A DNA stretch of 64,000 nucleotides from an uncultured Verrucomicrobiae bacterium (GTDB lineage Bacteria; Verrucomicrobiota; Verrucomicrobiia; Limisphaerales; UBA11358), in NCBI GenBank assembly GCA_963764175.1, contig CAVXRE010000013.1, positions 193,768 to 257,767 on the forward strand. The letters run 5' to 3'. This document shows positions 20,278-44,166 of the stretch, in pieces. The notes beneath the pieces were generated by a model. It was given only the letters and a program-made list of their open reading frames with translations. It had not been told where the DNA came from and searched no databases. Numbering within the stretch: position 1 is the first letter of the stretch; every line of letters starts with the position of its first letter. The translations under genes and the position numbers were made by a program.

Positions 20278-22182
20278 TTAATCACCGGGTAATTCCTGAT
20301 GCAAATGAACCAGATAAATATGTCTTTGCGGTCGTCCGGGCTGCATTGTGAATGACACTTGGTCAACCAGGTCGCCTTGATACTGGCTCATCCATTGTTC
20401 AATGTTTTCATTTGCAGCTTGAAGCGCGTTGTCTTCCACCACGATATAATGAATCCCAAGCAGTCGTAATTGTTCCGGCGTGTCGCCTGCCAAAACCCAT
20501 TCGACCCGCCGTTGTCCGAAGGGCAACCAGAGTCCAACCTCACTTCCGCCGAGCGTGCTGGCGAAGCCCACGACACGTTCGTCCGGTGGCAACTCTCTTG
20601 CGATATGATACCGCCGGCTTTCAAGCAGCGAAGACCGGACGGTGTAGGATTGCAAGGCTCTTGTGGCGAGTTCCGAGTGCGGATTTTTTTGATGAAGCCA
20701 GCCCAGAACGGTCTGGGCTGGGAACAGCGGGCGGTATCGTGACACCACCAGCAACATTGCCGTGAACAGCATGACCAGCAGGCCAAGCCGCTGCCACCAC
20801 GTCCGGCGCGTCAGACAATCGTGCCCTGCCCCGGCCAGCAGCAGCGGGAAAAGGAATGGATAATAGGGAGCCAACTGGCGCGCGTTCTCATAAGTGCCGA
20901 CCTTGGCCATGAACAGAAGCAGCAAAAGCCACGGCACCAGGCGCAACATCCGCATTTGCATTCCGCCCGCAACCCGCGCTCCGCCAGCCGTCGTTCCTGG
21001 ACGTCGCGCGGCCCAGATGGAAACCGCCGTCAACAGGCAAATTCCCAGCCCGATGCCCGCGTTTCCTTCCGAGACACCATGCGCCCCAAAACTCAACCGG
21101 CCGAAAAATTCAAACGAAGCAAAATGAGACCCGAACGGCGTCTGCACGAAATGTTCCATGGTTGCGTTCCATGATTCCACCCAGGGGAATACAGGCGGCA
21201 ATAGGTTTTGAAGCGGAATGCAGAACGCGTTTCCGATAATTCCCCAGAAGGGGGAATCCAGGTGCAAATTCGAGGCGTTCATTGGAATTCCCGTCCAGGT
21301 TCCCTGGTGCTTTAAATTGAGAACCGTCATCGGCACGATGGAAACAAGCAAACTCACGGCCACCATTGCCACGGTCACAACCGGCTGTTTGAGCAACAAC
21401 TTCAAACCCGGCCACGCCGCAATGAACCACAGCAACACCAGCGGAAGGTTTGTCTGCTTGGTATCGGTTAACAATGCGACGGCGAGCAGGGACAGCAACA
21501 GATCGCCTGTACGCCCGCTTTTTCTTGCTCGCAACGCCAGATCCACCGCCGCCAGCGCGTAAATGACCGCGAAACTGTCGTTGCCCACCGAACCGGCTTG
21601 CATCGTGTAACACCAGCCGGATGACAGCAGCCATGCCCACCACCATGCCACGCGCGCGCGCACCCGCAATCGCGTGAAGACGCTGAAAATCAAACCGGGC
21701 AGCATCAGATAGGACAACCAGTTGATCAAAAACAGAAACCGGTCGGTGCGTGTGAACAGTATCAACGGCGCCGACAGCCATTCCCATCCGCAAGCCGCGG
21801 CGTTCATGCGGAAATCAAAGGTGTGAATCCAGTGCCACTGGTTCTGCCCCAGCCAGTGCAACACCCGCGGGATGCGATAGGCGTCTGAATCGCCGTTGTT
21901 CGGCACGTACAGCATTCCTCCGGTCAGTGCCATCAACGCCAGTGCCAGGAACAACAGCGCCCCGGGGCGTCTGAAACGATGCAGTAATTTATGCCTGGCG
22001 CGGTGAATGGTTTCCCATGACTGCCATTTGAAATTTCGCCAGCGCCAAACTCCCGCAATCGCGGCGATGGCAAATACCACCAGATAGCCGCCACGATTCA
22101 ATTCGTGAAGCGCCGATAAAACCCAGCCCGCGCCGCATAGCAGCGCGGAGAGCAGAATCCAGGCGCGCACGGCGTTCAGCAT
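20278..22182 (-). CDS. Large polytopic membrane protein, putative GT-C-fold glycosyltransferase (paralog 1)
   Basis: 634 aa with more than 10 TM helices. The first extracytoplasmic loop carries NGDSDAYRIPRVLHWL. It is full-length similar to ORF 42265..44166. Confidence 0.6.
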   Translation of the reverse strand: MLNAVRAWILLSALLCGAGWVLSALHELNRGGYLVVFAIAAIAGVWRWRNFKWQSWETIHRARHKLLHRFRRPGALLFLALALMALTGGMLYVPNNGDSDAYRIPRVLHWLGQNQWHWIHTFDFRMNAAACGWEWLSAPLILFTRTDRFLFLINWLSYLMLPGLIFSVFTRLRVRARVAWWWAWLLSSGWCYTMQAGSVGNDSFAVIYALAAVDLALRARKSGRTGDLLLSLLAVALLTDTKQTNLPLVLLWFIAAWPGLKLLLKQPVVTVAMVAVSLLVSIVPMTVLNLKHQGTWTGIPMNASNLHLDSPFWGIIGNAFCIPLQNLLPPVFPWVESWNATMEHFVQTPFGSHFASFEFFGRLSFGAHGVSEGNAGIGLGICLLTAVSIWAARRPGTTAGGARVAGGMQMRMLRLVPWLLLLLFMAKVGTYENARQLAPYYPFLFPLLLAGAGHDCLTRRTWWQRLGLLVMLFTAMLLVVSRYRPLFPAQTVLGWLHQKNPHSELATRALQSYTVRSSLLESRRYHIARELPPDERVVGFASTLGGSEVGLWLPFGQRRVEWVLAGDTPEQLRLLGIHYIVVEDNALQAANENIEQWMSQYQGDLVDQVSFTMQPGRPQRHIYLVHLHQELPGD

Positions 22183-22220
22183 AAATTAAAACGAGACTGC
22201 CACGCCGTCTCGTGGCAGAC
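22183..22220 (-). terminator. Intrinsic terminator after the GT9/Wzy-like genes
   Basis: The minus strand reads GTCTGCCACG-AGACGG-CGTGGCAGTC followed by TCGTTTTAATTT, immediately before the ATG at 22182. Confidence 0.5.
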
Positions 22221-22260
22221 AATTTGATTTTGGCCGGACGAGGCGGACAGTTGCTTGCGA

Positions 22261-23289
22261 TTACGACGGGTTTCGCAGATGGGCGGCGGCGAATTTTTCA
22301 ACGCTCACCCATGCTTCCTCTTCGGTGATGTTCCACAAACAGTGCGGCGAGGCGTACCGGCAGTAATCCGAGCAGGGTTTGTAAGGACAGGATTTGCCCT
22401 CAATCCACTCCGCCGCCGGGTGCAGCGGCGCAAACCACTCCGGCAACTGCGGCCCGAAAAGCGTGAACGTCGGCACCCCGCAAAACGCGGCCAGATGCCC
22501 CGGCCCGGAATCGTTGCCGATGAACGCGCCCGCGTCATCCATCAGCGCAATCAATTCCGTCACGTTGGCCGGAGTTGCCACACCGGCTTCGCCCGCCTTC
22601 AACCACCAGTCGCGCTGGTCGGAGTCGCAAGCGACCTGGACAGAAAACGCCTTCCCTCGCAGCCGTTCGGCCAATTGTCGGTATCGTTCCAACGGCCACA
22701 CGCGCACCGGCTGGCCGGCGCCGCTGTGAATCAGCACCTTCCGGCCGCCACGCGAGGCCGGCTGGAGGACTTTTTCACGGGACGGGAGCGACACGTCCAA
22801 GGCCCGTCCGATGACGCGCCAGGATTCATAGCGATGTTCCTCCGGTTCCGCGCGGGCGACCGGCTGCGTCAAAAAACACTGGCTGCCCATGCGCCGAAAC
22901 CCAAGCCGGTTCTTTGCGCCGAAGAGTTTCAAAAGCAGATGGTCCCGCGGGTCCCAGCGCGCGGAGATGCCAGTTTCAAAATGGCCGGCCGCCAGCCTCC
23001 GGCGCAGCCGAACCATTTCCAGCAGCGGCCAGCGCCAGAGATGATATTTGTTTTTGAACGCGGTCCACGGCGCGGTGAAGGTGACGACTTTCACCTCCGG
23101 CCACAGGCGGGGTTGCAAATCGAGCGCGAAGGGCTTGGCCAGCAAAGTAACGTCATATCTCTCGGCGACGGCGCGGATGAATGGCGTCGCAATCACCAGG
23201 TCGCCCAGCCCCCAGAGTTCGACGATGAGCAATTTGGATTTCACGATTGACGATGCGTTCCGGGCCGATGGAACGAGCGCGGGTTGCAT
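22261..23289 (-). CDS. Glycosyltransferase family 9 (heptosyltransferase-like)
   Basis: Motifs WGLGDLVIATPFIRA and GNDSGPGHLAAFCGVPTFTLFGP. The preferred start at 23289 overlaps the upstream stop codon (coupled). Confidence 0.8.
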   Translation of the reverse strand: MQPALVPSARNASSIVKSKLLIVELWGLGDLVIATPFIRAVAERYDVTLLAKPFALDLQPRLWPEVKVVTFTAPWTAFKNKYHLWRWPLLEMVRLRRRLAAGHFETGISARWDPRDHLLLKLFGAKNRLGFRRMGSQCFLTQPVARAEPEEHRYESWRVIGRALDVSLPSREKVLQPASRGGRKVLIHSGAGQPVRVWPLERYRQLAERLRGKAFSVQVACDSDQRDWWLKAGEAGVATPANVTELIALMDDAGAFIGNDSGPGHLAAFCGVPTFTLFGPQLPEWFAPLHPAAEWIEGKSCPYKPCSDYCRYASPHCLWNITEEEAWVSVEKFAAAHLRNPS

Positions 23290-24851
23290 CACCGTGTGAA
23301 GGCCGGGCCGGGCCGGGAACCCGGCAAAGCGCCGCGCGGACGGAGGAATGGTTCCTTTGCTTGAACCGGCTGCGGCGCCGGCTCGCACATGCCACCGTTG
23401 AGGGCGATGCCTAATCCGATGGCACCGACAAATTTCGACAAGTCAAGACTCAGTGCGCCGCCAATAAACATGAATTGGATGACGTAAGCTAGGAATGCCG
23501 CAAAAAGGAAGGTGTTGATGGTTTGCAGTGATGGATCGCCATACCGGTAATTGCAACGCAATACTCGGAAGCCGGCCGCCAAAAACCAGAGAAACGTGAT
23601 GCACCCCCAAATGCCGAAGGGGATGATAACCGAAAGCGGCCCATTGTGGTAATCGTAGGCGAGCGCCAGTGAGTTTTGACCCGGATCAAAATTACCGGCA
23701 GCGTCGGACAGGGCCGTTTGGCCCATCATCTCGTTGTAATCCTCGGGTGTGATGGCCATTCCTTTGCCCAGCAGAAGGTATTGGGGTATCTGCGGCATAA
23801 GGGCCTTCCACATATTGACGCGCCAGTCCACAGTTGTTTGCGCCGCCTCCCTGGCTGCGGGATTAATTTGCAGCGGCAGAAAGGCCAGCGTCCGTTGAAA
23901 GGTAAACGGCAGTTTGTTCGCCAGTGGAACGATGGCAACCGCCGCCAGCACCCCGAAAAAGGCGAAGATCGGCAGCAATCTGGTCCGATGCATTCCTTCC
24001 ATGAAAAATTGAAGGGCAAAAATCAGCACGACGAACAAAAACACGCCGCGGAATCCGCCCAAAAAAACCATCAAGAGTGACAAGATCAACAGGACTGGCC
24101 GCCACAGTTTGCCTTCAAGAAAAATGCCGCGAATGCCATATCTGGCCAACAGGAAGCACCAGAGCATGACCCCGGCCGAGGAAAATCCCCCCAAACGGGT
24201 CTCTCCCAGTTCAAAATTTTGAAAGGCATAGCCGGTCGGCGGGAAAAACCAGAAGATGGGATAAGCCCACGAAGGCACAAAGGGAAACAAATCCCCGATA
24301 ATACTCGACAAGCCGCCCAGAAAAAACAGCCCCACATATAAACCTGCCCGCTGGGGAGGGATGCGCCGGGCCGTGAGCGCAAAATAGCTCAAAACACCAA
24401 TCACCAGGTAAATATATTTCTTGCCCCCGTAAACATCCGAACCAAACGCATGCAAACCAAACCCGCCGGTAAATTTGGCGGTAACCAGCACCACGCCCAT
24501 CAGGCATATCAGCGGCCAAGTTATCTGGGGCACGGGAATGAAACGCCTCTGGCTGTTCAAGGCCCTCTCCACCACGGATATCCCCAAGCTCAGCACCACC
24601 ATCACGAGCCCTAAACTGGGTGCTCCTTTTATAAAAAACAGGGTTATGCCCAGGTTCCAGCTTAATACGAGCAACGGGTGATGCCAGCGGAGCAGCAAGG
24701 GTGAAATCAGCAAGAGCGCAAGGACGCCGAAAAGTCCAAGGGTCGAATAATCCATCGGATCGGTCAGCATAAAACCGACGATGACGGCCAGCGGCACGCA
24801 AACCGCATAGACGATGAGCGACCTTAGGATGACGGGAGCATTATTCATCAA
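23289..24851 (-). CDS. Wzy-type O-antigen polymerase/ligase-like polytopic membrane protein
   Basis: 520 aa with about 12 TM helices and a large late periplasmic loop. It sits in a glycan locus next to GT9 and GT4 genes. Confidence 0.65.
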   Translation of the reverse strand: MMNNAPVILRSLIVYAVCVPLAVIVGFMLTDPMDYSTLGLFGVLALLLISPLLLRWHHPLLVLSWNLGITLFFIKGAPSLGLVMVVLSLGISVVERALNSQRRFIPVPQITWPLICLMGVVLVTAKFTGGFGLHAFGSDVYGGKKYIYLVIGVLSYFALTARRIPPQRAGLYVGLFFLGGLSSIIGDLFPFVPSWAYPIFWFFPPTGYAFQNFELGETRLGGFSSAGVMLWCFLLARYGIRGIFLEGKLWRPVLLILSLLMVFLGGFRGVFLFVVLIFALQFFMEGMHRTRLLPIFAFFGVLAAVAIVPLANKLPFTFQRTLAFLPLQINPAAREAAQTTVDWRVNMWKALMPQIPQYLLLGKGMAITPEDYNEMMGQTALSDAAGNFDPGQNSLALAYDYHNGPLSVIIPFGIWGCITFLWFLAAGFRVLRCNYRYGDPSLQTINTFLFAAFLAYVIQFMFIGGALSLDLSKFVGAIGLGIALNGGMCEPAPQPVQAKEPFLRPRGALPGSRPGPAFTR

Positions 24852-25023: not shown

Positions 25024-26172
25024 TCAACTGGCTTTTATCACTTCCTCGTAAATATCCACGTGCCGCCTCGCCAAAACGTCAGGATGATAGCGTTCCCGGA
25101 TGATGGCGGCATTGCCAATCGGGCGGGGGTGTCCTTGTGAAATCCACCGGGCAATGGCGGCGGTCAACCCCGCCCAATCGTCCGGTGCAAAAAGTTCCGC
25201 TCCGGGCATGTTCCCGGCAGTGTCCACAATCCCCCCCACGCGTGCGCCAAAGAACTTCAACTCCCGCCCCAGCCCCTCAAGCACAACCATTGGGGCGGCA
25301 TCCTCGGTGGGGAAATGCAGCATGGCCGCCGCTGAATCGTAGTAATGCAGAAGTTCGCCCTCGGACGGCGTGCCCAAAAAGCGCGCGTACCCGGCTTCTT
25401 CCATCGGCTTGATACGCTTTTGAAACGCCGTGGTATAATCAGCCCCCGACGGGTGAACATAACCGATGAAGTGAAATTCAAAGTTTAATCCCTGCTGGTG
25501 GAGCGCCTCGGCCACGTCCAGCAATTCCAACTGGCGTTTCCGCGAAGAGATGGCGCCCACGTTGAGTAGAACACAGGGACGCGGGCCGGTGTCCGGGGGG
25601 GCATCCAGAAATGTCCGCCGGAGAGGATGCGGCATCAGCCATGTTCTCCGGGCGCGGGGCCGGACGAGTTTCTCGGTGTAGGACGAATTGCAAAACACGC
25701 CTGCCGTCCGGGGCAGGATAAAATTCTCAAGCCGCGCCGTCAGCCAGGCGTAACTCCCGATGTGTGGCCGGCCTAGGCGCGCCAGTTCGGCCATGTTCCC
25801 CTGCATGGCCACCACGTTGGGATGGCCCGAAAATATGGCGCTGATGGCGCACTCCCGTTCCGTTCCATCCCCCTGCACAATGTCCGGCCGGATCTCGCGC
25901 AGCTTCCGGCGGACGGCGCGAATGCACCCCTGGTATCCCGTGCGCAACCAGCCGATCTTGGGGACAAGCAACGGGTGAAACCAGATGTTGTCCGCCAGTT
26001 TTTCCGGCGATTGCACAGGCCGCTGCAGGCAGGAGATGACATGCAACTCCACATCGGACAGGCGCGCAAAACCGTCAATCAAGGAAGCGGTTCCTCCCGG
26101 CAGACAAGGCGTCGTCTCGGCATAGCGGCGATAAGTCTCGCGAAGGTCCATGGCCAGGAGCGCAATTTTCAT
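25024..26172 (-). CDS. Glycosyltransferase family 4 (GT-B)
   Basis: 382 aa with GT-B length and layout and a C-terminal acidic motif region (FPTEDAAPMVVLEGLG). Confidence 0.75.
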   Translation of the reverse strand: MKIALLAMDLRETYRRYAETTPCLPGGTASLIDGFARLSDVELHVISCLQRPVQSPEKLADNIWFHPLLVPKIGWLRTGYQGCIRAVRRKLREIRPDIVQGDGTERECAISAIFSGHPNVVAMQGNMAELARLGRPHIGSYAWLTARLENFILPRTAGVFCNSSYTEKLVRPRARRTWLMPHPLRRTFLDAPPDTGPRPCVLLNVGAISSRKRQLELLDVAEALHQQGLNFEFHFIGYVHPSGADYTTAFQKRIKPMEEAGYARFLGTPSEGELLHYYDSAAAMLHFPTEDAAPMVVLEGLGRELKFFGARVGGIVDTAGNMPGAELFAPDDWAGLTAAIARWISQGHPRPIGNAAIIRERYHPDVLARRHVDIYEEVIKAS

Positions 26173-26373
26173 TCAGCCATAAATATCAGATTGCACCGTG
26201 TCGGGCAAGCGTCGCCCCGCCGTGGCAGAGTCCTGATTTGCTGTAGCACCGACACTACAACAGCCGAATCGGGACATTACCCGTCGTGTTGGTTTGCGGG
26301 TTAAAGATTGTGCAAGTGATGCCTCCTCCGACAAAACCATTGGGCAGATTATGTTTCACAAGACCGCCTGATT

Positions 26374-27183
26374 ATGCAAAAATTACATTCTGTGAACACT
26401 CTTGGCAAATTCACGCTGTACTTGCAGGCGGCGGCCGCTCTCCGATCACCGCACTGGCGGGGGCTGCCCTTGATACCCAAATCTCTTTGCCCCGGCGTTC
26501 CGTACTCCCGCCATGCCTGCAACTCGTTCATCATCTGGATCAAGCAGCTTGACCTGCCATCCGCGAAGTTGATTGTGGATGTCGGGGCCAATCATGGCGA
26601 TTTTGCGAACGCGGCAAGCATTTGGTTTCCTGACGCGAAGGTCGTGGTGGCGGAACCGTTGCCAAAAATGCAGCGGTACCTGGAGCAAATCATCCGTGCC
26701 CGGCGAAACAAATGGCATTTGCTGCCCTGCGCCATCGGCGCGGAACGCGGAACCCTCCCGCTCTTTGTGGATGAAGGCCGCGATGACATTGCCAGTTTGG
26801 TGGGGTTCAGCGAGGAATACCGGAGGGCAAATACCCAGGCCCGGCTGGCGGGAGAAATGCTCTGCGAAGTAAAGACCCTGGACGAAACCGCGTCGGAAAT
26901 GGGAATTGACCACATTGACCTGCTGAAGATTGACGTGGAAGGTTTTGAATTCGAGGTGCTGAAGGGCGCCGGACAGATTCTGCAAAAAACCGACGCGGTC
27001 ATCATCGAAGTCTCGCTCGTAAGAAATGCTGGCACATCAAGCCCCCTTGTCGAAATGCTCGACCGCCTTGTGCGGCACGGTTTCCAGATTGTGAATGTCA
27101 TTCCCTCGCTCTTGGACACCAACGAACCCTGGAAACCTTGCGAGTTCAACATTCTCGCCCGGCGGGGGGCAAAATCACCTTGA
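26374..27183 (+). CDS. FkbM-family SAM-dependent methyltransferase
   Basis: VDVGANHGDF SAM motif and DLLKIDVEGFEFEVL, which is typical of FkbM. Confidence 0.75.
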   Translation: MQKLHSVNTLGKFTLYLQAAAALRSPHWRGLPLIPKSLCPGVPYSRHACNSFIIWIKQLDLPSAKLIVDVGANHGDFANAASIWFPDAKVVVAEPLPKMQRYLEQIIRARRNKWHLLPCAIGAERGTLPLFVDEGRDDIASLVGFSEEYRRANTQARLAGEMLCEVKTLDETASEMGIDHIDLLKIDVEGFEFEVLKGAGQILQKTDAVIIEVSLVRNAGTSSPLVEMLDRLVRHGFQIVNVIPSLLDTNEPWKPCEFNILARRGAKSP

Positions 27184-28374
27184 ATCGCGGGCCGTTTCGC
27201 CAGTTTTGATTTCCGCCCGTTTGCCCTCAATGCGACGTTTGTATTCCGCAAGCAGCCGGTCGCCATAATCCTGCCATGTGTTTCCTTCGGCGCCCTTCCG
27301 GCGAGCCGCCTCACCCATGCGCTGGTTCAGGGCACGGTCCTGCGCTAGCCGGATCATGGCGTCCGCAATCTGCCGCGGCTCCCGGGGACGGATGACAAAA
27401 CCTTCAATCCCGTCCTTGACCAGGGTGGTGGCGCCACTCTCATAGCTGGTGACAACCGGCAGGCCGGCGGCCATGGCTTCCAGAATGACAAGCGCAAATC
27501 CTTCCTCCTGGGAGGGAAGAACAAAAGCCGTGCAACCGGTCAACAGCCGTGCAAGCTCCTGGTGCGGCAAACTGGGATGATGGGTGAAGGTTCCTTCCCA
27601 GCGCGGACGTTCGAGCCGGAAATCGGGCCGGTAATTGCCCACACAAATCAGTTCTGCATCGGGGATGGCGCGCTTGACCAGTTCAAAGGCCCGGAAAAGA
27701 TATTGATGTCCTTTGCGCAAACAAACCATGCCCACCGAGATGAATCGCGGTTTTGGTGGCATGGATTTTCTCGGGACAAAAGTTGAAGTATCCACGCCGA
27801 ATGGGCTAACAAAACATTTATCCTCCGGCACACCGTTCGCCAGCATTGTGTCCTTGACGAAATTGGAAGGGCACAGAACCAGATCGGCCCGTTCCAATTC
27901 GCGGTTCATCCGGGCAAACATCCAGCGCGGGTTCGGCACATTTTCGCCGGGACACCAGATGTCGCATTCCCGCTGCATGTAACCGTAATATGTCGTGGGG
28001 TGGCTGTTCGAGGCGTCCACCACTTTCAAGGCGCCATGCCGGTCCGCCCAGTCAAACGGTTCGGTGGCAAAGCCCATGATGGCATGGACGGCATCGCATT
28101 TGGGCAGGGACTGCCGCTTCAGCCATCCGCGCCACAGGGGAAACAGGGCATAAAAAGGTTTTTCAACCCAGCACCACCATGGTGTCAGGCGATAAAACGG
28201 TTTCATGGCCAGATGAAACGGCCAGCAACGGTGGTATTTGCCGGGTGGCAGGCCTGTGCTGTTCTTGTCCGAAATCCACAGACCGGCCAGCGCGCCCCGC
28301 TCTTGAAACGCCCGGGCCGTCCGGCGCAGATGCCACGAACCGCACGTCGTCAGGAGAACTTGCATTGGCCGCAA
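27175..28374 (-). CDS. Glycosyltransferase family 4 (GT-B)
   Basis: 399 aa with the EX7E-type motif PSQEEGFALVILEAMAAGLPVV. Confidence 0.8.
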   Translation of the reverse strand: MRPMQVLLTTCGSWHLRRTARAFQERGALAGLWISDKNSTGLPPGKYHRCWPFHLAMKPFYRLTPWWCWVEKPFYALFPLWRGWLKRQSLPKCDAVHAIMGFATEPFDWADRHGALKVVDASNSHPTTYYGYMQRECDIWCPGENVPNPRWMFARMNRELERADLVLCPSNFVKDTMLANGVPEDKCFVSPFGVDTSTFVPRKSMPPKPRFISVGMVCLRKGHQYLFRAFELVKRAIPDAELICVGNYRPDFRLERPRWEGTFTHHPSLPHQELARLLTGCTAFVLPSQEEGFALVILEAMAAGLPVVTSYESGATTLVKDGIEGFVIRPREPRQIADAMIRLAQDRALNQRMGEAARRKGAEGNTWQDYGDRLLAEYKRRIEGKRAEIKTGETARDSR

Positions 28375-36121: not shown

Positions 36122-36153
36122 GGTTAGTGTTATAATATGACTTAAAATACCAT

Positions 36154-37260
36154 TCAATCATCCGCAATTGTCTTTTGTCCGCTCAAGATCCGCCTAGCGA
36201 GAAGCATCGCGCGGGCGATGGCTTGATCCATGTCGTAATAACGATATTCGCCAAGCCGCCCGGCAATGAGCAAATTTGACATTGTTTTTGCCCGCTCACG
36301 GTAGGTGCTGTAAAGTTTGGTGTTCGCCTCATCGGGAAAGGGATACTCAAAATCGTTCGGGTCGTCCGGTGTCACCGTCACTTCGCGCGTCAGCACTGTG
36401 CCGTGAATACTTTGGATTTTTTCCGGCAGCATCATGTGCTTCCATTCCAGCGTGCGGATGTGCGGGCCGTTGGCCGGGTCGGGGTTGTTGACCTGTCCGC
36501 AGGGCTGCGCAAATTCCACTCCGGCCAGGTACTCGTGTTGCCGCCGCTGGCCGCGATATTTTAATTTTCCCAAATCGCAGCCAAAATACTCGTCAATCGG
36601 CCCGGTAAATATGACCATTTTCACAGCGTTGAATTCGCCGCGATTTTTCAGATAATCGCAATTCAGTTTCAGGGGAATGCCTTCGAGCATTTTTTGCATC
36701 AAATCCGCATAGCCGTTTTCTGGAATGCCTTGATGTTTGTGCCGCATCAAGCGCGGTTCGTCGTCTTCGCGCACATCGAAGCGCCGGGCAAGGCCCGCAT
36801 AAAGTTGGGTCGCCGGAACGCCCCATTGCTTTTCGTTGTAACCCTTGACGAATTTTTCATAGACGACGCGCGGCATCATCGCCAGCGACGCTTCCTCAAA
36901 ATTTCTTGGCACGCTGGTGAATTCGGGCCTCCAATTTTCGCCAACTACGCGGCGGATGTAGCCGGCGGCAACCGGCCAGTTTTCGCAACGACCGTCCACA
37001 AATGATTTGAGCGCGGCCTCGTATTTGTAAAATCGCGCAAAACGGTTGACGAATTGCCAAAGCTCCTCGTCGTTGGTGCGAAAATAATGCGGCCCGTAGG
37101 TGTGAATCCGAATGCCGCTGGAATGATGATGGTCATGGACATTCCCGCCGCAATGAGCGCGGCGATCAATCACCAAAACCGATCGCCCAGCCTCGACGAG
37201 CATTCGTGCGATAACTGCGCCGGTCAAACCGGAACCGACAATCAAATAATCTAAAGCCAT
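36154..37260 (-). CDS. glf: UDP-galactopyranose mutase
   Basis: 368 aa with the FAD motif YLIVGSGLTGAV, YEKFVKGYNEKQWG and GRLGEYRYYDMDQ. Confidence 0.9.
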   Translation of the reverse strand: MALDYLIVGSGLTGAVIARMLVEAGRSVLVIDRRAHCGGNVHDHHHSSGIRIHTYGPHYFRTNDEELWQFVNRFARFYKYEAALKSFVDGRCENWPVAAGYIRRVVGENWRPEFTSVPRNFEEASLAMMPRVVYEKFVKGYNEKQWGVPATQLYAGLARRFDVREDDEPRLMRHKHQGIPENGYADLMQKMLEGIPLKLNCDYLKNRGEFNAVKMVIFTGPIDEYFGCDLGKLKYRGQRRQHEYLAGVEFAQPCGQVNNPDPANGPHIRTLEWKHMMLPEKIQSIHGTVLTREVTVTPDDPNDFEYPFPDEANTKLYSTYRERAKTMSNLLIAGRLGEYRYYDMDQAIARAMLLARRILSGQKTIADD

Positions 37261-37492: not shown

Positions 37493-39085
37493 ATGCATTG
37501 TGTCATCGGTTCCGGTCCGGCGGGCGTCGCCTGCGCCAAGGCGCTGCTGGCGCGCGGCGCAACCGTGCTGATGCTCGATGCCGGCCTCGAATTGGAGCCT
37601 GACCGCACCCGGATCGTCCGTCAATTTGCCGAGGCGAAACCGTCCGCGTGGCAGGCGGGCGACCGTGACAGGTTGAAAGGCGGCATGGCCGCCGGCGCCA
37701 AGGGCATCCCGCTCAAGCTGGCGTTCGGCTCGGACTTTCCCTATCGCGAAACTGAAACGCACATCCCCTGGCAAGGCCGGAACACCAGCGTGCGGCCGTC
37801 GCTGGCACTCGGCGGCCTCAGCAACGTCTGGGGCGCAACCCTGCTGCCGTACCGCGACGCGGAGATCGCCGACTGGCCCGTCAAGAGCGCGCAACTGGAA
37901 AATCATTACCGCGCCGTGCTCGAACTCACAGGGCTGTCCGCGCAGCACGACGATCTGGAGGAATGGTTTCCGCTGCATTGCGACAATCCGAACGTGCTCC
38001 AGCCCAGCCGGCAGGCCGCGTTGCTGCTCCAGAACCTCGACCGCCATCGCGACGCCCTGCGCGAACGCGGCTGGCGGTTTGGCCGCGCGCGGCTGGCCGT
38101 GCGCGCCGCCGACGGCCCCCGCGGCATCGGCTGCATCCATTGCGGCTTTTGCATGTACGGCTGCCCTTACGGCTGCATTTTCAACAGCGCCGGCATCGTG
38201 CGCGAATTGCGCGCGGGGAAAAATTTCTCGTACCAGCGCGACGTCATCGTCACGACCGTGCGCGAAGATCCAGGCAAGGTTGTCATCGAAGGCTTCCACC
38301 GCCAGACGCGCGCCCCGCTTTCGTTTGAAGCGGACCGCGCGTACCTGGCTGCTGGCGTCATTCCGACCGCGCAAATTCTTTTGCGCTCCCAATCCGCCTA
38401 CGACCGGCCGCTGCGCCTGCGCGACAGCCAGTATTTTCTTTTCCCGCTCGTGCTGGCGCGCCGGTCGCCTGACGTCCAGACAGAATCGCTTTACACGCTC
38501 AGCCAGGTTTTCATCGAACTTTGCCGCCCGCAAGTCAGCCGCCACACCGTCCATCTGCAAATTTACACCTACAGCGATTTGATCGGGGAAGCGGTGCGGA
38601 AAACCTTCGGTCCGCTCGCGCGCCCGCTCGAAGGCCTGGCGCGGCGGCTCGAAGAACGCATGGTGATTGTGCAGGGCTACCTGCACTCGGACGAATCGCG
38701 GACGATTGAAATGACCCTGAAACGCGATGGCGCGGGGGATTGCCTGCACTTGAACGCGCTGCCCAATCCCGAAACGCGCCGCACGGTCAGGCGCGTTGTG
38801 CGCGAAATGCTCAAGCAATCGCGCCGGCTCGGCGGAATCGTTCTGCCGCCGATGCTGCAACTGGCCGAGCCCGGCCGCGGTTTCCACTGCGGCGGCTCGA
38901 TTCCGATGCGCGAAAATCCGCAGCCGTTCGAGAGCGATTGCCTCGGGCGTCCGCACGGCTGGACGCGCGTTCACGCGGTGGACGCGACGGTCCTGCCGGG
39001 CGCGCCGGCGACCACAATCACTTTTTCCGTCATGGCCAACGCCCATCGCATCGGCTGGGAAACCGCCGGGGAAAAAATTGGGTGA
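37493..39085 (+). CDS. GMC-family FAD-dependent oxidoreductase
   Basis: N-terminal VIGSGPAGVACA FAD loop, Cys cluster CIHCGFCMYGCPYGC and a GMC-like C-terminus (VHAVDATVLPGAPATTITFSVMANAHRIG). Confidence 0.75.
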   Translation: MHCVIGSGPAGVACAKALLARGATVLMLDAGLELEPDRTRIVRQFAEAKPSAWQAGDRDRLKGGMAAGAKGIPLKLAFGSDFPYRETETHIPWQGRNTSVRPSLALGGLSNVWGATLLPYRDAEIADWPVKSAQLENHYRAVLELTGLSAQHDDLEEWFPLHCDNPNVLQPSRQAALLLQNLDRHRDALRERGWRFGRARLAVRAADGPRGIGCIHCGFCMYGCPYGCIFNSAGIVRELRAGKNFSYQRDVIVTTVREDPGKVVIEGFHRQTRAPLSFEADRAYLAAGVIPTAQILLRSQSAYDRPLRLRDSQYFLFPLVLARRSPDVQTESLYTLSQVFIELCRPQVSRHTVHLQIYTYSDLIGEAVRKTFGPLARPLEGLARRLEERMVIVQGYLHSDESRTIEMTLKRDGAGDCLHLNALPNPETRRTVRRVVREMLKQSRRLGGIVLPPMLQLAEPGRGFHCGGSIPMRENPQPFESDCLGRPHGWTRVHAVDATVLPGAPATTITFSVMANAHRIGWETAGEKIG

Positions 39086-39150: not shown

Positions 39151-40014
39151 ATGAAGAATGCGTGCGCCATCACCGGCAGCAATGGCTACCTGGGCGGCTG
39201 CCTCAAGAATTATTTCGCGGCGCAAGGCCGGGAAGTTTTGGAGCTGACCCGAAGCCCCGTGCCCGGCGCGCGGGCGGTGGCATTCCAGCTCGGCGCGGAA
39301 ATTTCACCGCAGGCGCTGGCCGGGGCGGACGCGCTCGTGCATTGCGCCTACGACTTTCAGCCGCTGCGCTGGGAGGAAATCCGCGCGGTGAACGTGGCAG
39401 GCACGCGAAAACTTTTTCAGGCCGCGCGCGCGGCGGGCATCGGCAAAATGATCTGCGTTTCGTCCATCAGCGCCTACGACGGCTGCCGCTCGCTTTACGG
39501 CAGGGCGAAACTGGAAATTGAGAAGATCGCGCTGGACAACGGCGCGCTGGTGATCCGGCCGGGGCTGGTTTACGGCGGCGGGCCCGGCGGGATGTTCGGC
39601 AGGCTCGTTGCGCAGGTCCGGAAGTCCTCCGTCATCCCGTTGATTGGGGACGGCTCGCAAATCCAGTTTCTCGTTCACAACGAGGATTTGGCCGGGTTCA
39701 TCGAAAAATTCACCGCCGGAAAAATTGAAATTGCGCCGCGCATTTTGACCGCGGCGCACGAGCAGCTGTGGCCGTTCCGGCAACTGCTTTCGGAAATTGC
39801 GCGAAGTCTGGATAAAAAGGTTAAATTTGTCCCGCTGCCGTGGCGGTTGATCTGGGCCGGGTTGAAGACGGCGGAGGCCTGCGGCGTGCGCTTGAATTTC
39901 CGCAGCGACAGCGTGGTGAGCCTGATGCATCAAAATCCCAGCCCGGATTTTTCGCCAAACGCGGCGGCGGGCTTGGTTTGCCGTCCGTTTGAAGCCGGGA
40001 AATTGCGACTTTAA
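39151..40014 (+). CDS. NAD-dependent epimerase/dehydratase (extended SDR)
   Basis: Rossmann loop ITGSNGYLGGCL and the catalytic YxxxK (YGRAK). Confidence 0.8.
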   Translation: MKNACAITGSNGYLGGCLKNYFAAQGREVLELTRSPVPGARAVAFQLGAEISPQALAGADALVHCAYDFQPLRWEEIRAVNVAGTRKLFQAARAAGIGKMICVSSISAYDGCRSLYGRAKLEIEKIALDNGALVIRPGLVYGGGPGGMFGRLVAQVRKSSVIPLIGDGSQIQFLVHNEDLAGFIEKFTAGKIEIAPRILTAAHEQLWPFRQLLSEIARSLDKKVKFVPLPWRLIWAGLKTAEACGVRLNFRSDSVVSLMHQNPSPDFSPNAAAGLVCRPFEAGKLRL

Positions 40015-40110: not shown

Positions 40111-40308
40111 TCAGCCGCCGGTTGATTCTGGCGGTTGGTTTTTCCCGCGTCTTTCCCGCAGGCGCAGGGTGAGGGTTTCGGCCTCTTCGAGCCATTCCAG
40201 CTTCTCGCGGAAAGTGCTTTGCAGCCCCATCAACAGGACGTGTTTCCGCGCCCCTTCAAAGGTGCACCATTCCCAACCAGGATGCGCGTAAAGTTCTTCC
40301 TTAGTCAT
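40111..40308 (-). CDS. 65-aa hypothetical protein, translationally coupled partner of the nucleotidyltransferase
   Basis: Its start overlaps the upstream stop by 8 nt. It is predicted helical (STFREKLEWLEEAETLTLRLRERR) and has no known motif. Confidence 0.5.
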   Translation of the reverse strand: MTKEELYAHPGWEWCTFEGARKHVLLMGLQSTFREKLEWLEEAETLTLRLRERRGKNQPPESTGG

Positions 40309-40819
40309 TGGTCTTATTATCCCTCAGCTTTCGCACTTCTTCAAGCGCTTCAATATCGGCAAGGTCCTGGGGCCGACCGGCAGCGCGCTTCATGGCCATG
40401 AGCGATTCATATCCAACGACTGGGGCCTTGATGGTTCCCATGACCTCCTCCCACCTGGCCGAGGCAAATTCACGCGCAAAATCAAACGGTTCATAGACAA
40501 AAATGTCTATTGGCGTGCGCCGGTGAACGTCACTCCAGAGTTTGAGGACGACCATGTTTTTTTCCCTGCGCCACGTCTCCCGGGTTGCCGAATCGGCGAA
40601 AGCTTCGGGTGTCACAGGAATTGACATCCGGTAATCCAAGTTCAACAGAACGCGAAGACCTTTCACAATATTTTCCGGTTCAAGGCCGATGACGACGTCC
40701 ACATCCTTGGTAAAACGTTCATATCCGTGCGCGTTGACGGCCAGGTCGCCGACGATGAGATATTTCACCCGGGCGTCATTCAGCGCCTTGACGATGGCTT
40801 CAACGCTGCGAACTTCCAT
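40301..40819 (-). CDS. Nucleotidyltransferase-fold protein (minimal NTase, DUF-type)
   Basis: It has the NTase pattern hG[GS]x9-13Dh[DE]h (IVGDLAVNAHGYERFTKDVDVVI) and the C-terminal segment LMAMKRAAGRPQDLADIEAL. Preferred ATG at 40819. Confidence 0.65.
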   Translation of the reverse strand: MEVRSVEAIVKALNDARVKYLIVGDLAVNAHGYERFTKDVDVVIGLEPENIVKGLRVLLNLDYRMSIPVTPEAFADSATRETWRREKNMVVLKLWSDVHRRTPIDIFVYEPFDFAREFASARWEEVMGTIKAPVVGYESLMAMKRAAGRPQDLADIEALEEVRKLRDNKTND

Positions 40820-40920
40820 ATTCCGGTTCCATGTTATCGCCGGGCGGCTGGCCGGCAAGATTGAACCTGAAGACCTGAACCGATTGACCGCGGAATACAC
40901 ACGCGAAAAAATCTTTTGAC

Positions 40921-41025: not shown

Positions 41026-42213
41026 TCAGGCCGCGGGCGGCCGGCGCGAGACGGTTTTCAGGCCGAGCACGCTCATGAAAAAGCTGGAAAAAATGGTTTG
41101 CACGCCGACAACCACCAGCGTTGCCGCCGGAATCAGGCGGCGCAGGTTTTCCTCCATGGACGGCAGCAGGCCGAAGTGGGCCTGTTTCCAAAGCCACAAC
41201 GCGCGCAGAAATAAAATTATTCCCGCAAGCAAAACGGCCAGGCCGGCAACAATCCCTTTTTCGAGCGTAAAAATTTTGAAGACGCGCGTGAGTCTCGGGT
41301 CCTCCGGCAGCAGCCCCTCGGCAACGGCAAAAACTCTGGTGAAAAACGCGAACGCAACGAGCTGGAAACCCACAACGACCGCCATGCACGCCATCATGAG
41401 CGTGCCCACGTTCAACTCGATGCCGCCGATCATGATGTCATTCACCGACAGCATGGCGGCAAAAAAGGCTCCCAGCGCCGAGAGCAAAAGTCCCGGCACG
41501 AGAAACAGCCACCGCGGCGAGTAGAGCAGCATGAACCGCAAATGCCGCCAGCCGTCGCGCCACGGCTTCAGATGCGGCGGACGCGAGCGCCCGTCCGGGT
41601 GCAGCGTGATGGGCACCTCGGTGATTTTGAACTTCCGGAGCGTGGCCTTGATGACCATTTCGGAGGCGAATTCCATGCCCGTCGTCTGCAATTCCATTTT
41701 TTCAAACGCCTCCCGGGTGAACCCGCGCATGCCGCAATGAAAATCGTGCGCCGGACACTTGAAAAAAAAACGGCCGATGAATGACAGCACCGGGTTGCCA
41801 AGCCAGCGGTTTTTCCACGGCATCGCACCGGGCAAAATGGCCCCACCGCCAACCGGCAAACGGCAGCCCATGACCAATTCAAACCCCTCCTGAAATTTTT
41901 TGACGAAGCCGGTGAGTTCGGAAAAATCGTAGCTGTCGTCCGCGTCGGCCATGATGATCCATTTGCCGAGGGCGGCGCGGATGCCGCCGCGCAGTGCGCT
42001 GCCGTAGCCCTTTTCCTTCACCGGCACGACACGGACACCCATGTTTTTGGCGATGGCCTGCGAACCGTCAGTGCTGCCGTTGTCGGCGATGATGATTTCA
42101 CCGGGCACGCCGGCGCGTTGAATTCCCAGCCTTGCCTTTTCGATGCAACGGGCGATGGTTTCCGCTTCATTCAGGCACGGCATCACGATGCTCAGTTCAA
42201 CGGCTCCGGTCAC
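41026..42213 (-). CDS. GT2 glycosyltransferase with C-terminal 4-TM domain (polyprenyl-phosphate glycosyltransferase-like, GtrB/ArnC/DPM1 type)
   Basis: LSIVMPCLNEAETI, ADNGSTDGS and ADADDSYD (DxD), followed by four hydrophobic helices. Confidence 0.8.
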   Translation of the reverse strand: MTGAVELSIVMPCLNEAETIARCIEKARLGIQRAGVPGEIIIADNGSTDGSQAIAKNMGVRVVPVKEKGYGSALRGGIRAALGKWIIMADADDSYDFSELTGFVKKFQEGFELVMGCRLPVGGGAILPGAMPWKNRWLGNPVLSFIGRFFFKCPAHDFHCGMRGFTREAFEKMELQTTGMEFASEMVIKATLRKFKITEVPITLHPDGRSRPPHLKPWRDGWRHLRFMLLYSPRWLFLVPGLLLSALGAFFAAMLSVNDIMIGGIELNVGTLMMACMAVVVGFQLVAFAFFTRVFAVAEGLLPEDPRLTRVFKIFTLEKGIVAGLAVLLAGIILFLRALWLWKQAHFGLLPSMEENLRRLIPAATLVVVGVQTIFSSFFMSVLGLKTVSRRPPAA

Positions 42214-42264
42214 GCGTCAAACTTACCCAAACGCCCGGTCATTTGGCGAGTGCGGGTTTTTGGC

Positions 42265-44166
42265 TCACGGCAATTTGACCAGGTACCAGCCGGTCCCGGG
42301 GCCCGTGGCATTCAAACGCAGCGGGATTTTTTGGATGACTTGCGCGTTCATTCGCCTGACCCAGTCGTCGGGTGAACACCCAAACCAAAATTCAAAGCTG
42401 TCCGTTTTAACCAGAACGTATTCGATGCCGCGCTGTTTCAAATCCGCCGGCTGGTCGCCGGGACGGACGTGCTCGATGCGGCGTGAACCGAACGGCCGCC
42501 ACAGCGAGGTTTCCGGCGTGTCAAATGCGATCAGCCCCAAAATTTTCAAGTCCGGCGGCAGCGCCGCGCGCGCCGGCGCAAATGCGTCGTTCCGCTCGTG
42601 ATAGACGGAATACACGGCCTCGACACGCGCCAGCGACGGATGTTGTTCCGCGGCCGCATGGATTTTTTCCAAAAATACGCCGACCGGAAACAGCGGACGC
42701 GCCGGCGAGACAACCAGCAATCCCGCCGCGATCAAAAACACTGGAAGCGCCATCGCACGCCACCAATTTTTTTTGACCAGTTGTTCATGCCCGGGAAAAG
42801 CCAAAAAAAACGGGGCCAGCAGCGCGTAATAGGGCGCAAGGATGCGATCGATGGGATAAACCTCCGACTGGCTCAACAGCACCAGCAGCGAAATCCACGG
42901 CGCCAGGCGCAAGCCGGCAAGCCAGAGGGCTTCGGTGAAACCGGACGGCCAATGGCAAGGCGGACCACTGCGCCGCGCGGCGGCAGCCACGACGCTGACC
43001 AGAAAAAAAATGGTGACGCCGAAACCCAAGCCGGCGGTTTCCTCGACCTGCATTTCTTCGATGTGAAATCCGGCGGCCTGCGGTTCCACGACCGCCTCAC
43101 GCATGCGCCGGCTCAAACCGGAGGGAACGATTTTTTGGACCAGGCGATCCCATGCATTGACCGGAGGAAAAACCGGCGGCGCAAGATTTTGGACCGTGAT
43201 CAGCGCGGCATTTGCCGGGACCCGCAAAAATGGCGCGTTTCTTTGCGGCGTCCCCTCGATTTTCCAGCCCGTCCAGTCGCCGCAGAAATGCGCATTGAGG
43301 ACGGCGTTGGGCAAAAACGACGCGAAGGCCGCGATGGCGCAAACCGCCGCCGTTTTCAATGGCCGCCGCAACATTAATCCCGGCGAAGGAAGGATGGCAA
43401 TGGCCCACGGCAGCAGCAACGGCAGGTTGCTGGTTTTGGCGCTGGTCATCATCGCCGCCGCCAGGATCGAAACAAAAATATTGCGCGCGGACCGGGATTT
43501 TTTTGCGCGCAGCGCAAAATCAATCGCCGCCAGCGCAAATGGCGCGCCGAACAAATCGCTGCCGATGCTCCCCGCCTGCAATAAAAAGCAATAGCCGGTC
43601 GGGACAATCCACATCCAATGCCAGGCTGTGCGCCGGCGCACGCCGAGCCGCGTGAACACGCTGAACACCAGGCCCGGCAGCAGCAGAAATGAAACAACAT
43701 TGATGAGAAACAGCTCCCGGTCGGTTCCCAGCAGCGCGACGAACGGCGCGGAAACCCATTCGATGCCGCAGGAACGGTCATTCAAGCGGTCGAAAATGGT
43801 GTGAATCCAGTGCCATTGTCCCGCCGCGAGCCAGTGCAGCACGCGTGGGATGCGATAAGCCAGCGCATCATAATTTGTCGGCGGATATAGCGCGCCGCCC
43901 AAAAATGCCAGAGCCGCCAGAATCAAAAACACCAGGGGGAAAGGCCGCCGGAAACGGCGGCGGAATTTTTTCAGGCGCGCCCGGGGCAACATTTGCGCGG
44001 ACGTTCTTTTCCTCCAAACGCAAAGGACGCTGAACCCAATCAGCAGCGCAACCACATAGCCGCCGGGGTTCAGCTCGTGAACCGCGGAGAGCGCCCAGCC
44101 CGCGCAATTGAGATACGCGCAAAACCAGACCCAGAGGAGCACGACAGTCGGCATTTTGCCGGCCAT
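42265..44166 (-). CDS. Large polytopic membrane protein, putative GT-C-fold glycosyltransferase (paralog 2)
   Basis: 633 aa. It is colinear with 20278..22182 over the full length (for example NYDALAYRIPRVLHWLAAGQWHWIHT against NGDSDAYRIPRVLHWLGQNQWHWIHT). Confidence 0.6.
   Translation of the reverse strand: MAGKMPTVVLLWVWFCAYLNCAGWALSAVHELNPGGYVVALLIGFSVLCVWRKRTSAQMLPRARLKKFRRRFRRPFPLVFLILAALAFLGGALYPPTNYDALAYRIPRVLHWLAAGQWHWIHTIFDRLNDRSCGIEWVSAPFVALLGTDRELFLINVVSFLLLPGLVFSVFTRLGVRRRTAWHWMWIVPTGYCFLLQAGSIGSDLFGAPFALAAIDFALRAKKSRSARNIFVSILAAAMMTSAKTSNLPLLLPWAIAILPSPGLMLRRPLKTAAVCAIAAFASFLPNAVLNAHFCGDWTGWKIEGTPQRNAPFLRVPANAALITVQNLAPPVFPPVNAWDRLVQKIVPSGLSRRMREAVVEPQAAGFHIEEMQVEETAGLGFGVTIFFLVSVVAAAARRSGPPCHWPSGFTEALWLAGLRLAPWISLLVLLSQSEVYPIDRILAPYYALLAPFFLAFPGHEQLVKKNWWRAMALPVFLIAAGLLVVSPARPLFPVGVFLEKIHAAAEQHPSLARVEAVYSVYHERNDAFAPARAALPPDLKILGLIAFDTPETSLWRPFGSRRIEHVRPGDQPADLKQRGIEYVLVKTDSFEFWFGCSPDDWVRRMNAQVIQKIPLRLNATGPGTGWYLVKLP

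Follow-up and report, generated by a model that had tools for sequence, protein, structure and literature searches.

The described systems that most resemble the locus analysed here transfer lipid-linked sugars through polytopic glycosyltransferases of the GT-C fold. We examined a 64-kb stretch of DNA from an uncultured Verrucomicrobiae bacterium of the Limisphaerales (contig CAVXRE010000013.1), hereafter the window, in which two related polytopic proteins, paralogue A (20278-22182, minus strand, 634 aa) and paralogue B (42265-44166, minus strand, 633 aa), bracket a cluster of glycan genes. B belongs to a conserved four-gene module, all of which is present in the window: the GT-C-like gene itself, a family 2 glycosyltransferase with transmembrane (TM) helices (GT2-TM), a flavoprotein (Ox530) and a short-chain dehydrogenase/reductase (SDR287). 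The overall reading that we favour, with somewhat more confidence than doubt, is periplasmic glycosylation of the three-component type, in which A and B would represent a GT-C family that uses a lipid-linked sugar and is served by a probable epimerase pair.

In Gtr-type systems (the GtrA flippase, the GT2 GtrB and the GT-C GtrC of Salmonella and Shigella O antigens) and in the Gram-positive CsbB/YfhO and GtcA systems, as in the window, a GT2 of the polyprenyl-phosphate-hexose-synthase type adjoins a polytopic GT-C in or beside a surface-polysaccharide locus, and the logic, decoration after assembly on the outer side of the membrane, is alike. The A/B family differs in lacking any sequence relation to these proteins, in having 13 predicted TM helices with an extra N-terminal hairpin and in carrying a 145-aa C-terminal alpha/beta domain. 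The window also has no GtrA-like gene and adds the oxidoreductase/SDR pair. We saw a GtrA domain only in one related locus (L085), within a separate cassette of GT2, GtrA, UbiA and a 513-aa protein (3057-7213) near the module; this cassette may constitute another system for lipid-linked sugars. Whereas Gtr cassettes are phage-borne and serotype-converting, the genes described here are chromosomal, phylum-wide and conserved.

The mycobacterial decaprenyl-phosphate-arabinose pathway (a UbiA-type DPPR synthase, DprE1/DprE2 and the Emb/Aft enzymes) offers a second parallel, with flavoprotein oxidase and SDR neighbours beside a GT-C and several GT-C paralogues plausibly acting on one lipid-linked donor. 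DprE1 has the VAO/FAD_binding_4 fold, whereas Ox530 is a glucose-methanol-choline (GMC) oxidoreductase with a Cys cluster, so the two are analogous rather than homologous. The mycobacterial synthase is UbiA-type and dependent on phosphoribosyl pyrophosphate (PRPP), in contrast to the nucleotide-sugar-dependent GT2 of the module, and with such a donor synthase a hexose or hexosamine would probably be transferred, not a pentofuranose. The ArnC/ArnD/ArnT/ArnEF pathway for lipid A aminoarabinose is alike in that a GT2-made undecaprenyl-phosphate sugar is edited while lipid-linked, by the ArnD deformylase, before transfer by a GT-C. There the editing is deformylation, whereas here it would be redox chemistry; the window has no ArnE/F-like genes, and the family profile has no detectable relation to ArnT.

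The pentofuranose systems with GT136 enzymes in Citrobacter youngae O1/O2 share with the A/B family a GT-C that is encoded in an O-antigen locus, has a helical domain in the periplasm following a TM helix and carries an additional periplasmic domain at its C terminus, together with an auxiliary epimerase (a proposed one here) that diversifies the donor and a candidate flippase of the MOP/MATE superfamily (Kelly et al. 2024, PMC11127046). They rely on a PRPP-dependent, UbiA-like PPPRS synthase and on a single SDR (ORF13) or DprE1/E2 homologues, in contrast to the GT2 and the GMC/SDR pair found here, and the GT136 C-terminal domain is a beta-rich carbohydrate-binding module (CBM), whereas ours is an alpha/beta domain with no CBM match; it is by this description that we set the family apart from GT136. 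The same authors know of no epimerases in side-chain glycosylation systems beyond their SDR and DprE1/E2 homologues (PMC11127046). Our literature searches found no description of the A/B family, of the four-gene module or of a GMC/SDR pair in an epimerase role. At the sequence level, the family thus appears to be a new GT-C family, found so far only in Verrucomicrobiota and accompanied by a new kind of auxiliary pair.

Two paralogues with a predicted GT-C fold

A and B are true paralogues. BLASTP aligns them colinearly from residue 1 to about residue 630 with 251 identities in 637 positions (39%), 55% positives, 19 gap positions and E = 2e-134, a likeness that far exceeds a common TM composition. 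A sequence-only reading of the window had described two open reading frames (ORFs), colinear end to end, at exactly these coordinates, and its proposal of full-length paralogy, to be checked by pairwise percent identity, is borne out. Among the shared motifs it quoted, AYRIPRVLHWL..QWHWIHT, LFLIN..S(Y/F)L(M/L)LPGL(I/V)FSVFTRL, QAGS(V/I)G(N/S)D and D-x-x-A-Y-R occur in both proteins, but GWC(Y/F) does not, as B has GYCF. Identity (in B numbering) falls from 57% across TM3 and the first outer loop (75-149) and 49% across TM4-TM9 (150-295) to 36% in TM10-TM13 (382-487), 31% in the long outer loop (296-381) and 27% in the C-terminal soluble domain (488-633). A retains every family-invariant residue. 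A database protein (P0001) that is 100% identical to B has 629 aa, and the true start of B is therefore probably Met5 (44154).

The 64-kb window contains exactly two copies of the family (tblastn). A further 633-aa ORF on the plus strand (16310-18211) was considered as a third paralogue and rejected as spurious, being without a Pfam match or tblastn similarity and antisense to a hybrid histidine kinase. This ORF is an artefact of high G+C, and its length equals that of the paralogues by coincidence.

Neither A nor B reaches any Pfam or NCBIfam cut-off, and neither gives a match to PMT or PMT_2, the Pfam models for the ArnT and PMT families (GT83 and GT39). A gives a subthreshold match to DUF2142 (PF09913; 18.4 bits against a gathering threshold of 30.1 bits, E = 0.001) over residues 166-295 only, and B gives none. 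A Pfam scan of the 55 family sequences that make up our alignment, which was also used for the invariant residues, the profile and the structure prediction, yields only faint signals from the GT-C clan: PMT_2 in 3 members (best E = 1.4e-5) and DUF2142 in 2. One homologue (P0225) also shows a subthreshold PMT_2 signal, as a precomputed match. Searches of PDB chains with A, B and the 55-sequence profile returned chance matches only (E of about 1), and hhalign of the family profile against Escherichia coli ArnT was null (probability 0.2%). Neither A nor B matches the Pfam Wzy_C domain, and neither contains a WWD, the core of the WWDxG motif of oligosaccharyltransferases (STT3/PglB/AglB, GT66); the conserved pair W468-W469, next to which comes R or Q, opens TM13 on its cytoplasmic side.

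Structure prediction is more informative. The AlphaFold2 model of B (pLDDT 88, pTM 0.91) was compared with the PDB by Foldseek, and ranks 1 to 32 are all GT-C enzymes (probability 0.89-1.00, best E = 9e-6), namely ALG9, ALG12, AglB, ArnT, STT3, AftD, EmbA/B/C, Pmt4, Pmt1/2, ALG3 and PglB, which span at least eight GT-C families. From rank 33 onward the matches are unrelated transporters with a probability of at most 0.2. The TM-scores of the GT-C matches are modest, at about 0.4, a level to be expected when multi-domain membrane proteins share about 12% identity. On this model, and with one model and one search program behind the assignment, the A/B family is predicted to have the GT-C fold. 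The sequence-only reading had called the proteins GT-C-like while declining to name a family, and both positions agree with the outcome: the fold search placed the family in no class other than glycosyltransferases, and neither the Pfam and NCBIfam libraries nor the sequence searches of the PDB and ArnT supplied a name.

Helices in the model, hydropathy and the positive-inside rule give a topology of 13 TM helices with the N terminus inside and the C terminus outside; in the 55 sequences, the short loops assigned to the cytoplasm hold on average 14.9 Lys and Arg residues, versus 1.1 in the periplasmic ones. Compared with the canonical GT-C architecture, there are two additional N-terminal TM helices. 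Nineteen of the 20 invariant polar residues are on the periplasmic side, either in a loop or in the outer half of a TM helix, the invariant set including D100, Y104, R105, R108, N129, E136, N156, D204, K244, R441, Y447, E552 and D571. D100, conserved in all 55 sequences, lies six residues beyond the TM helix at 75-93 and starts a helix (99-115), which is the earlier of the two short helices that this outer loop of 56 residues contains. In GT-C enzymes the catalytic Asp stands where the first outer loop begins (PMC11127046). D100 is accordingly placed as a candidate catalytic residue by the model, and the earlier comparison of the D-x-x-A-Y-R motif with the first loop of ArnT/PMT enzymes fits an invariant acidic residue that opens the first periplasmic loop. 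D204 sits in the outer loop next but one after that of D100. We take the loop equivalent to that of D204 to hold the second acidic residue of ArnT and PglB, and D204, K244, R441 and Y447 may bind sugar or phosphate.

The C-terminal 146 residues, modelled alone, form an alpha/beta domain (pLDDT 80.5) without a significant fold match in the PDB; the best hits are generic Rossmann-like folds (E = 0.06). The domain could therefore not be assigned as a CBM.

The four-gene module and its distribution

To date, all of the relatives retrieved by homologue searches (at least 2,357 for B and at least 1,072 for A) are labelled "hypothetical protein," and every named one comes from metagenome-assembled genomes of Verrucomicrobiota. 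An exhaustive profile search returned 2,098 clusters at 50% identity with E <= 1e-3, 664 of them with E <= 1e-30. A scan of one genome per GTDB species, with search patterns tuned to the A/B family, found 225 relatives, from which 79 loci were kept. Nearly all of these are verrucomicrobial (Limisphaerales/subdivision 3, Pedosphaera, Chthoniobacteraceae, Akkermansiaceae and Luteolibacter), a restriction to Verrucomicrobiota that is an observation and not proof. Several typical verrucomicrobial loci (L007, L017, L023, L024, L038, L045, L059 and others) are labelled Bifidobacteriaceae, Sulfotelmatobacter, Acidoferrum, Methylomirabilota or Dongiaceae, which probably reflects mis-binning or mislabelling in public records.

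When every protein of the window was searched against the related loci by tblastn, its glycan genes (Glf, the GT4s, FkbM and GT9) were essentially absent from them, and the window genes that recur are GT2-TM, Ox530 and SDR287. For 47 loci the flanks reach at least 6 kb to either side of the family gene. In these, GT2-TM lies within 6 kb in 26 and directly adjacent in 21, Ox530 and SDR287 lie within 6 kb in 27, and all three are near the family gene in 19; 16 loci carry two or three family copies. Tandem pairs occur. Counting three GT2 subtypes, a codirectional GT2 resembling dolichol-phosphate-mannose synthase (DPMS) or GtrB lies within 400 bp of the family gene in 41 of 58 loci from the genome scan and for 48 of 75 gene copies. 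Phylogenetic profiling of the family together with the GT2-TM gene, a check that the sequence-only reading had proposed, was thus strongly positive. Starting reciprocally from four Ox530 homologues, we found a family GT-C, confirmed by tblastn, in three of the four loci, the remaining one being truncated at a contig end; one Ox530-anchored locus has a Wzm/Wzt ABC transporter in place of Wzx/Wzy.

The genes are retained through changes of order. The usual arrangement in Limisphaerales is beta-CASP, YajQ (minus), GT-C (plus), GT2 (plus), an optional second GT-C, SDR287 (minus) and Ox530 (minus), often followed by a Wzx-like gene. Loci of the Akkermansiaceae/Luteolibacter type, which lack YajQ, read GT2, GT-C, SAM methyltransferase, Ox530, SDR287 (its start overlapping the Ox530 stop) and a Wzy-like protein. 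A tblastn screen had scored the latter loci as lacking a GT2, a result overturned by full annotation, which revealed a 313-aa GT2 of GtrB/ArnC size directly upstream of the GT-C; it has two C-terminal TM helices and matches the NCBIfam models AglJ (2e-57), Dol-P-hexose transferase, PpgS and ArnC. In one locus (L073) a VTT/DedA-domain protein (8123-8674), a possible polyprenyl-phosphate flippase or recycler, is encoded just upstream of the GT2 and GT-C genes. The wider surroundings of family members are glycan genes of the Wzx/Wzy, ABC (Wzm/Wzt) or exosortase type: one A-type orthologue occurs in an exosortase/exopolysaccharide (EPS)-type locus with a Bac_transf initiating enzyme, and another (L090) in a locus with GT4, Wzy_C and Wzx genes and with LpxB nearby.

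In the window, GT2-TM (41026-42213, minus) follows B in the same orientation after a gap of 51 bp. It matches the Pfam GT2 model (E = 1e-27) and the NCBIfam models AglJ, Dol-P-hexose transferase, PpgS and ArnC, and its best PDB match is the Pyrococcus dolichol-phosphate-mannose synthase 5mlz (6.8e-10), with ArnC and GtrB (sll0501) lower in the list. A DxD motif (D90-A-D) is present, the C terminus contains about four TM helices, and PF26629 (GT2_TM_C) is found on orthologues of GT2-TM. These features make GT2-TM a candidate polyprenyl-phosphate-sugar synthase of the DPMS/GtrB/ArnC kind.

Ox530 (37493-39085, plus) is a GMC-type flavin adenine dinucleotide (FAD) oxidoreductase with the GxGxxG of an N-terminal Rossmann domain at its very start and a GMC_oxred_C domain; no signal peptide or TM segment was found in it, and its sequence points to a cytoplasmic protein. 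A profile of 24 Ox530 sequences matches the catalytic subunit of Burkholderia FAD-glucose dehydrogenase (6a2u_B, 2e-9) in the PDB, followed by bacterial and fungal pyranose oxidases, fructose dehydrogenase and cellobiose dehydrogenase. Its invariant Cys cluster (C214, C217, C220 and C224) aligns with the Cys-rich segment of FAD-glucose dehydrogenase, a segment that presumably binds a 3Fe-4S cluster. Close orthologues appear in databases as "GMC oxidoreductase," "choline dehydrogenase-like flavoprotein" or "ferredoxin." When more Ox530 proteins were sought by profile, only close verrucomicrobial orthologues came up, so that what we say of the pairing applies within this phylum. SDR287 (39151-40014, plus), an extended SDR of the Epimerase family that starts 65 bp past Ox530, has intact GxxGxxG (9-15) and YxxxK (116-120) motifs; as in Ox530, no membrane anchor was found in it. 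The Ox530 stop overlaps the SDR start in L057, L065, L071 and L080, and the pair remains a neighbour of the GT-C at a sequence divergence of 35-40% and through at least three gene orders. By analogy with DprE1/DprE2, Ox530 and SDR287 are the proposed oxidase and reductase halves of a probable epimerase for lipid-linked sugars.

Inside the module of the window lies a minus-strand gene for a DUF6036-like nucleotidyltransferase (40301-40900, a weak Pfam match), which recurs near the module in only four other loci (L010, L011, L021 and L056) and is probably not a functional part of it. A 65-aa ORF (40111-40308) overlaps it by 8 bp, and the two may form a toxin-antitoxin-like pair.

Organisation of the locus and its surroundings

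Comparison with the closest long relative (L083, a 2.57-Mb contig) clarifies why A and B bracket the cluster. L083 has an A orthologue that is 86% identical and shares the A flank of the window (GT4, Wzy_C, GT9 and A, then ThiF, PNP, histidine kinase and LysR) as well as the B module, but the roughly 28 kb between its A orthologue and B module hold different genes (TylF, WbqC, PIG-L and DUF6492). Since the flank and the module are kept around a different interior, the bracketing reflects conserved ends round a variable centre (25024-37260 in the window).

Except where stated, genes of the window were named from Pfam or NCBIfam matches. A is the last gene of a minus-strand string that starts with a Wzy_C protein of the O-antigen ligase or polymerase family (23289-24851; Pfam 3.8e-13) and continues with a heptosyltransferase-like GT9 (22261-23388; Pfam 6.8e-20); Wzy_C genes recur beside the module in distant loci. 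The variable centre, whose genes related loci do not conserve, contains, in order, GT4 (25024-26172, minus), an FkbM methyltransferase (26374-27183, plus), GT4 (27175-28374, minus), a 366-aa GT2 (28440-29540, minus), a second FkbM methyltransferase (29329-30195, minus), a third GT4 (30321-31553, plus), Acyl_transf_3 (31550-32779, plus), an fn3 protein (32796-33434, plus), a divergent 505-aa polytopic Wzx (33688-35205, minus), a GlfT1-like GT2 (35246-36157, minus) and Glf (36154-37260, minus). The genes between A and B thus comprise GT9, Wzy_C, three GT4s, three GT2s, two FkbM methyltransferases, Acyl_transf_3, Glf and the divergent Wzx. The last has no Pfam match of its own and was identified through its homologues in related loci, all nine of which exceed the Polysacc_synt/Polysacc_synt_3 thresholds. 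Taken as longest ORFs, GT9 and the 366-aa GT2 run into the genes upstream of them by 100 bp and 212 bp, respectively. Because GT9 has 342 aa in L083 and the GT2 domain starts at residue 96 of the 366-aa protein, both true starts are probably further downstream, that of GT9 near 23289, which would give 342 aa as in L083.

The sequence-only reading had reported Wzx and Wzy-like genes but no initiating phosphoglycosyltransferase, chain-length regulator or OPX exporter, and the annotation concurs: the former are the Wzy_C protein and the divergent Wzx, and the Pfam scan of window ORFs detected none of the latter, be it a phosphoglycosyltransferase that initiates synthesis, Wzz or OPX. It had also described A and B as the two ends of the glycan cluster. 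This stands on the A side, where ThiF/rhodanese (19058-20203, plus), PNP (18162-19049, minus) and a histidine kinase (16157-17689, minus) follow, but is only approximate on the B side. There YajQ/DUF520 (44298-44783, plus; Pfam 1.4e-55) is a conserved chromosomal anchor that, by synteny, sets the outer limit of the Limisphaerales B module, but an MBOAT/acyl carrier protein (ACP)/FkbH acylation cassette (44835-50584) lies past it. A 145-aa minus-strand ORF at 44285-44722 was discarded as a high-G+C artefact antisense to YajQ, the real gene being on the plus strand.

Relative to the synteny of L002 and L086, the stretch from 44835 to 51011 is inserted between YajQ and the beta-CASP gene. It encodes a 325-aa protein without a Pfam match at the position that DltD would take, an MBOAT/DltB-like protein (45769-47178; TIGR04091, E = 1.5e-47, under the cut-off), an unannotated 106-aa ACP-like ORF with the motif DGWDSITH (47198-47518, minus), FkbH_N+HAD (47565-49331), an SDR/KR protein (49502-50584) and a possible MaoC-like ORF (50373-51011). 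The cassette looks like a Dlt-like trans-membrane acylation system loaded by an FkbH-type glyceryl-ACP enzyme, and L087 has a similar set of FkbH, a small ORF and MBOAT adjoining Wzm/Wzt. About 7 kb outside the locus, a second Wzy_C protein with C-terminal TPR repeats (11027-12988, minus, 653 aa) is conserved in L083, where its counterpart of 635 aa occupies the corresponding place. Further upstream are genes related to type IV pili and secretins (TPR + Secretin_N, 777-3032; PilM, 4812-6572), which are unlinked to the glycan locus in related contigs.

Proposed pathway, alternatives and implications

A and B most likely use a polyprenyl-phosphate-linked sugar and act at the periplasmic face of the inner membrane. 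In the pathway that we propose, GT2-TM would use a nucleotide sugar to glycosylate polyprenyl phosphate at the cytoplasmic face, as its homologues suggest. Ox530 would then oxidise one sugar hydroxyl to a ketone, a step to which conserved synteny and the chemistry of its family point, and SDR287 would reduce the ketone with inverted stereochemistry, yielding the epimer while it is still lipid-linked. The donor would be flipped across the membrane, with the Wzx-like MOP protein or the TM domain of the GT2 as candidates for this step, after which B and A, judging by fold, topology and residue conservation, would pass the sugar to a glycan acceptor with D100 as the candidate catalytic residue. 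The acceptor would be a surface polysaccharide or lipopolysaccharide (LPS) made by the variable genes between A and B. Because A and B resemble each other most round the catalytic loop and have diverged most in the C-terminal domain and the long outer loop, the sequences suggest that the two probably share a donor and differ in acceptor or position.

Several observations weigh against this pathway. The PDB searches and the ArnT comparison revealed no sequence-level link to any characterised GT-C, and the structure search of the PDB gave the C-terminal domain no recognisable carbohydrate-binding fold. No flippase gene was found, in that a GtrA-like or unassigned small hydrophobic ORF is absent from 15-53 kb of the window. 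About 40% of the full-flank loci have no Ox530/SDR within 6 kb, so the pair is not obligatory for the GT-C, and Ox530 and SDR287 could act on a nucleotide sugar or another substrate. One Ox530 locus (L084) carries GT2-TM, Ox530 and the SDR but has no GT-C in the interval from GT2-TM to YajQ, although its contig stops 1.1 kb away. Since related genomes that have the YajQ anchor in common supplied many of the loci, the co-occurrence counts exceed the number of independent events; that the genes persist through at least three gene orders carries more weight as an argument.

The main rival keeps the same enzymology but places the sugar on LPS core or lipid A, as in ArnT- or Rgt-like systems, rather than on an O-antigen or EPS side chain, the variable glycan genes being merely adjacent. 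It would account for a module that is conserved while the neighbouring glycan genes are not, for the stringing of A with the heptosyltransferase-like GT9 and a Wzy_C protein (the family of WaaL) in both the window and L083, and for LpxB near the A-type member in L090. A precedent exists in Rhizobium, where the ArnT-like GT-C paralogues RgtA-D share one lipid-linked galacturonic acid donor made by the GT2 RgtE. We nonetheless consider this acceptor unlikely, though a serious contender, as the family has no sequence similarity to ArnT and also occurs in exosortase/EPS-type and ABC-transporter-type loci, and the Wzy_C sequence cannot separate ligase from polymerase here. A polymerising role, in which A and B would build or branch a homopolymer as Emb/Aft enzymes do instead of adding single side-chain residues, is suggested by AftD and EmbA/B/C among the fold matches and by the arabinan-like logic of multiple paralogues (16 of the 47 loci), tandem pairs and an oxidase/reductase pair. 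It seems improbable given that the CBM-like domains of Emb and AftD are missing, with a C-terminal domain that matches no fold, and that the loci already encode polymerisation and export of the Wzy or ABC type. Protein O-glycosylation of the PMT/TfpW kind, with transfer from a lipid-linked sugar to secreted or membrane proteins, is quite improbable: the PMT_2 signals (three of the 55 members and P0225) come from a broad GT-C model that includes ArnT-like enzymes, the fn3-domain protein of the locus is not kept in related loci, and the consistent neighbours (Wzx, Wzy_C, GT4 and Wzm/Wzt) belong to polysaccharide assembly, even though Pmt4 and Pmt1/2 are among the fold matches and Pseudomonas aeruginosa TfpW is a GT-C that takes a DprE1/E2-derived donor for pilin (PMC11127046).

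The redox pair invites a different doubt, namely that Ox530 and SDR287 act on a soluble nucleotide sugar, make a keto- or deoxy-sugar or serve unrelated redox chemistry, leaving the GT-C and GT2 as a plain Gtr-type system. Many loci do have a GT-C and GT2 without the pair within 6 kb, Epimerase-family SDRs usually act on nucleoside diphosphate (NDP) sugars, and neither protein shows a membrane anchor, but DprE1 and DprE2 also lack TM anchors. We know of no GMC flavoenzyme that acts on NDP-sugars; the solved GMC relatives oxidise free or glycosidic sugars, and the pair stays by the GT-C across sequence divergence and changes of gene order, with overlapping stop and start codons. This alternative is doubtful but has a real chance of being correct. 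That A and B have a GT-C-like fold without being glycosyltransferases, acting for instance as a lipid-linked-sugar flippase, a scaffold or a chaperone, would suit a module in which no flippase gene was identified and an assignment made from fold alone. We regard it as very improbable, because all solved proteins matched are transferases and 19 of the 20 invariant polar residues are periplasmic, including an acidic residue at the canonical position in the first external loop.

A more specific proposal within the favoured reading of lipid-linked periplasmic glycosylation, which we put forward tentatively, is that the A/B family is a new phylum-specific GT-C family and that Ox530, with its Fe-S-type Cys cluster, and SDR287 are a nonhomologous, hitherto undescribed counterpart of DprE1/DprE2 that epimerises a GT2-made polyprenyl-phosphate hexose at the membrane. 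If true, Verrucomicrobia would gain a route to surface sugars that lack a nucleotide-activated precursor, and the DprE1/E2 principle, redox epimerisation while lipid-linked, may extend to hexose-type donors and to a different flavoenzyme fold. The outermost glycans of cells are made or modified by GT-C enzymes and their lipid-linked donors, which determine serotypes and count validated drug targets (Emb and DprE1) among them. About 2,100 clusters of this family are now labelled "hypothetical protein" in a phylum that is a major one in soil, freshwater and the gut and that has hardly been studied for its envelope glycans. With a name for the family and for the four-gene module, these clusters would gain an annotation rule and glycobiologists a concrete pathway to test.

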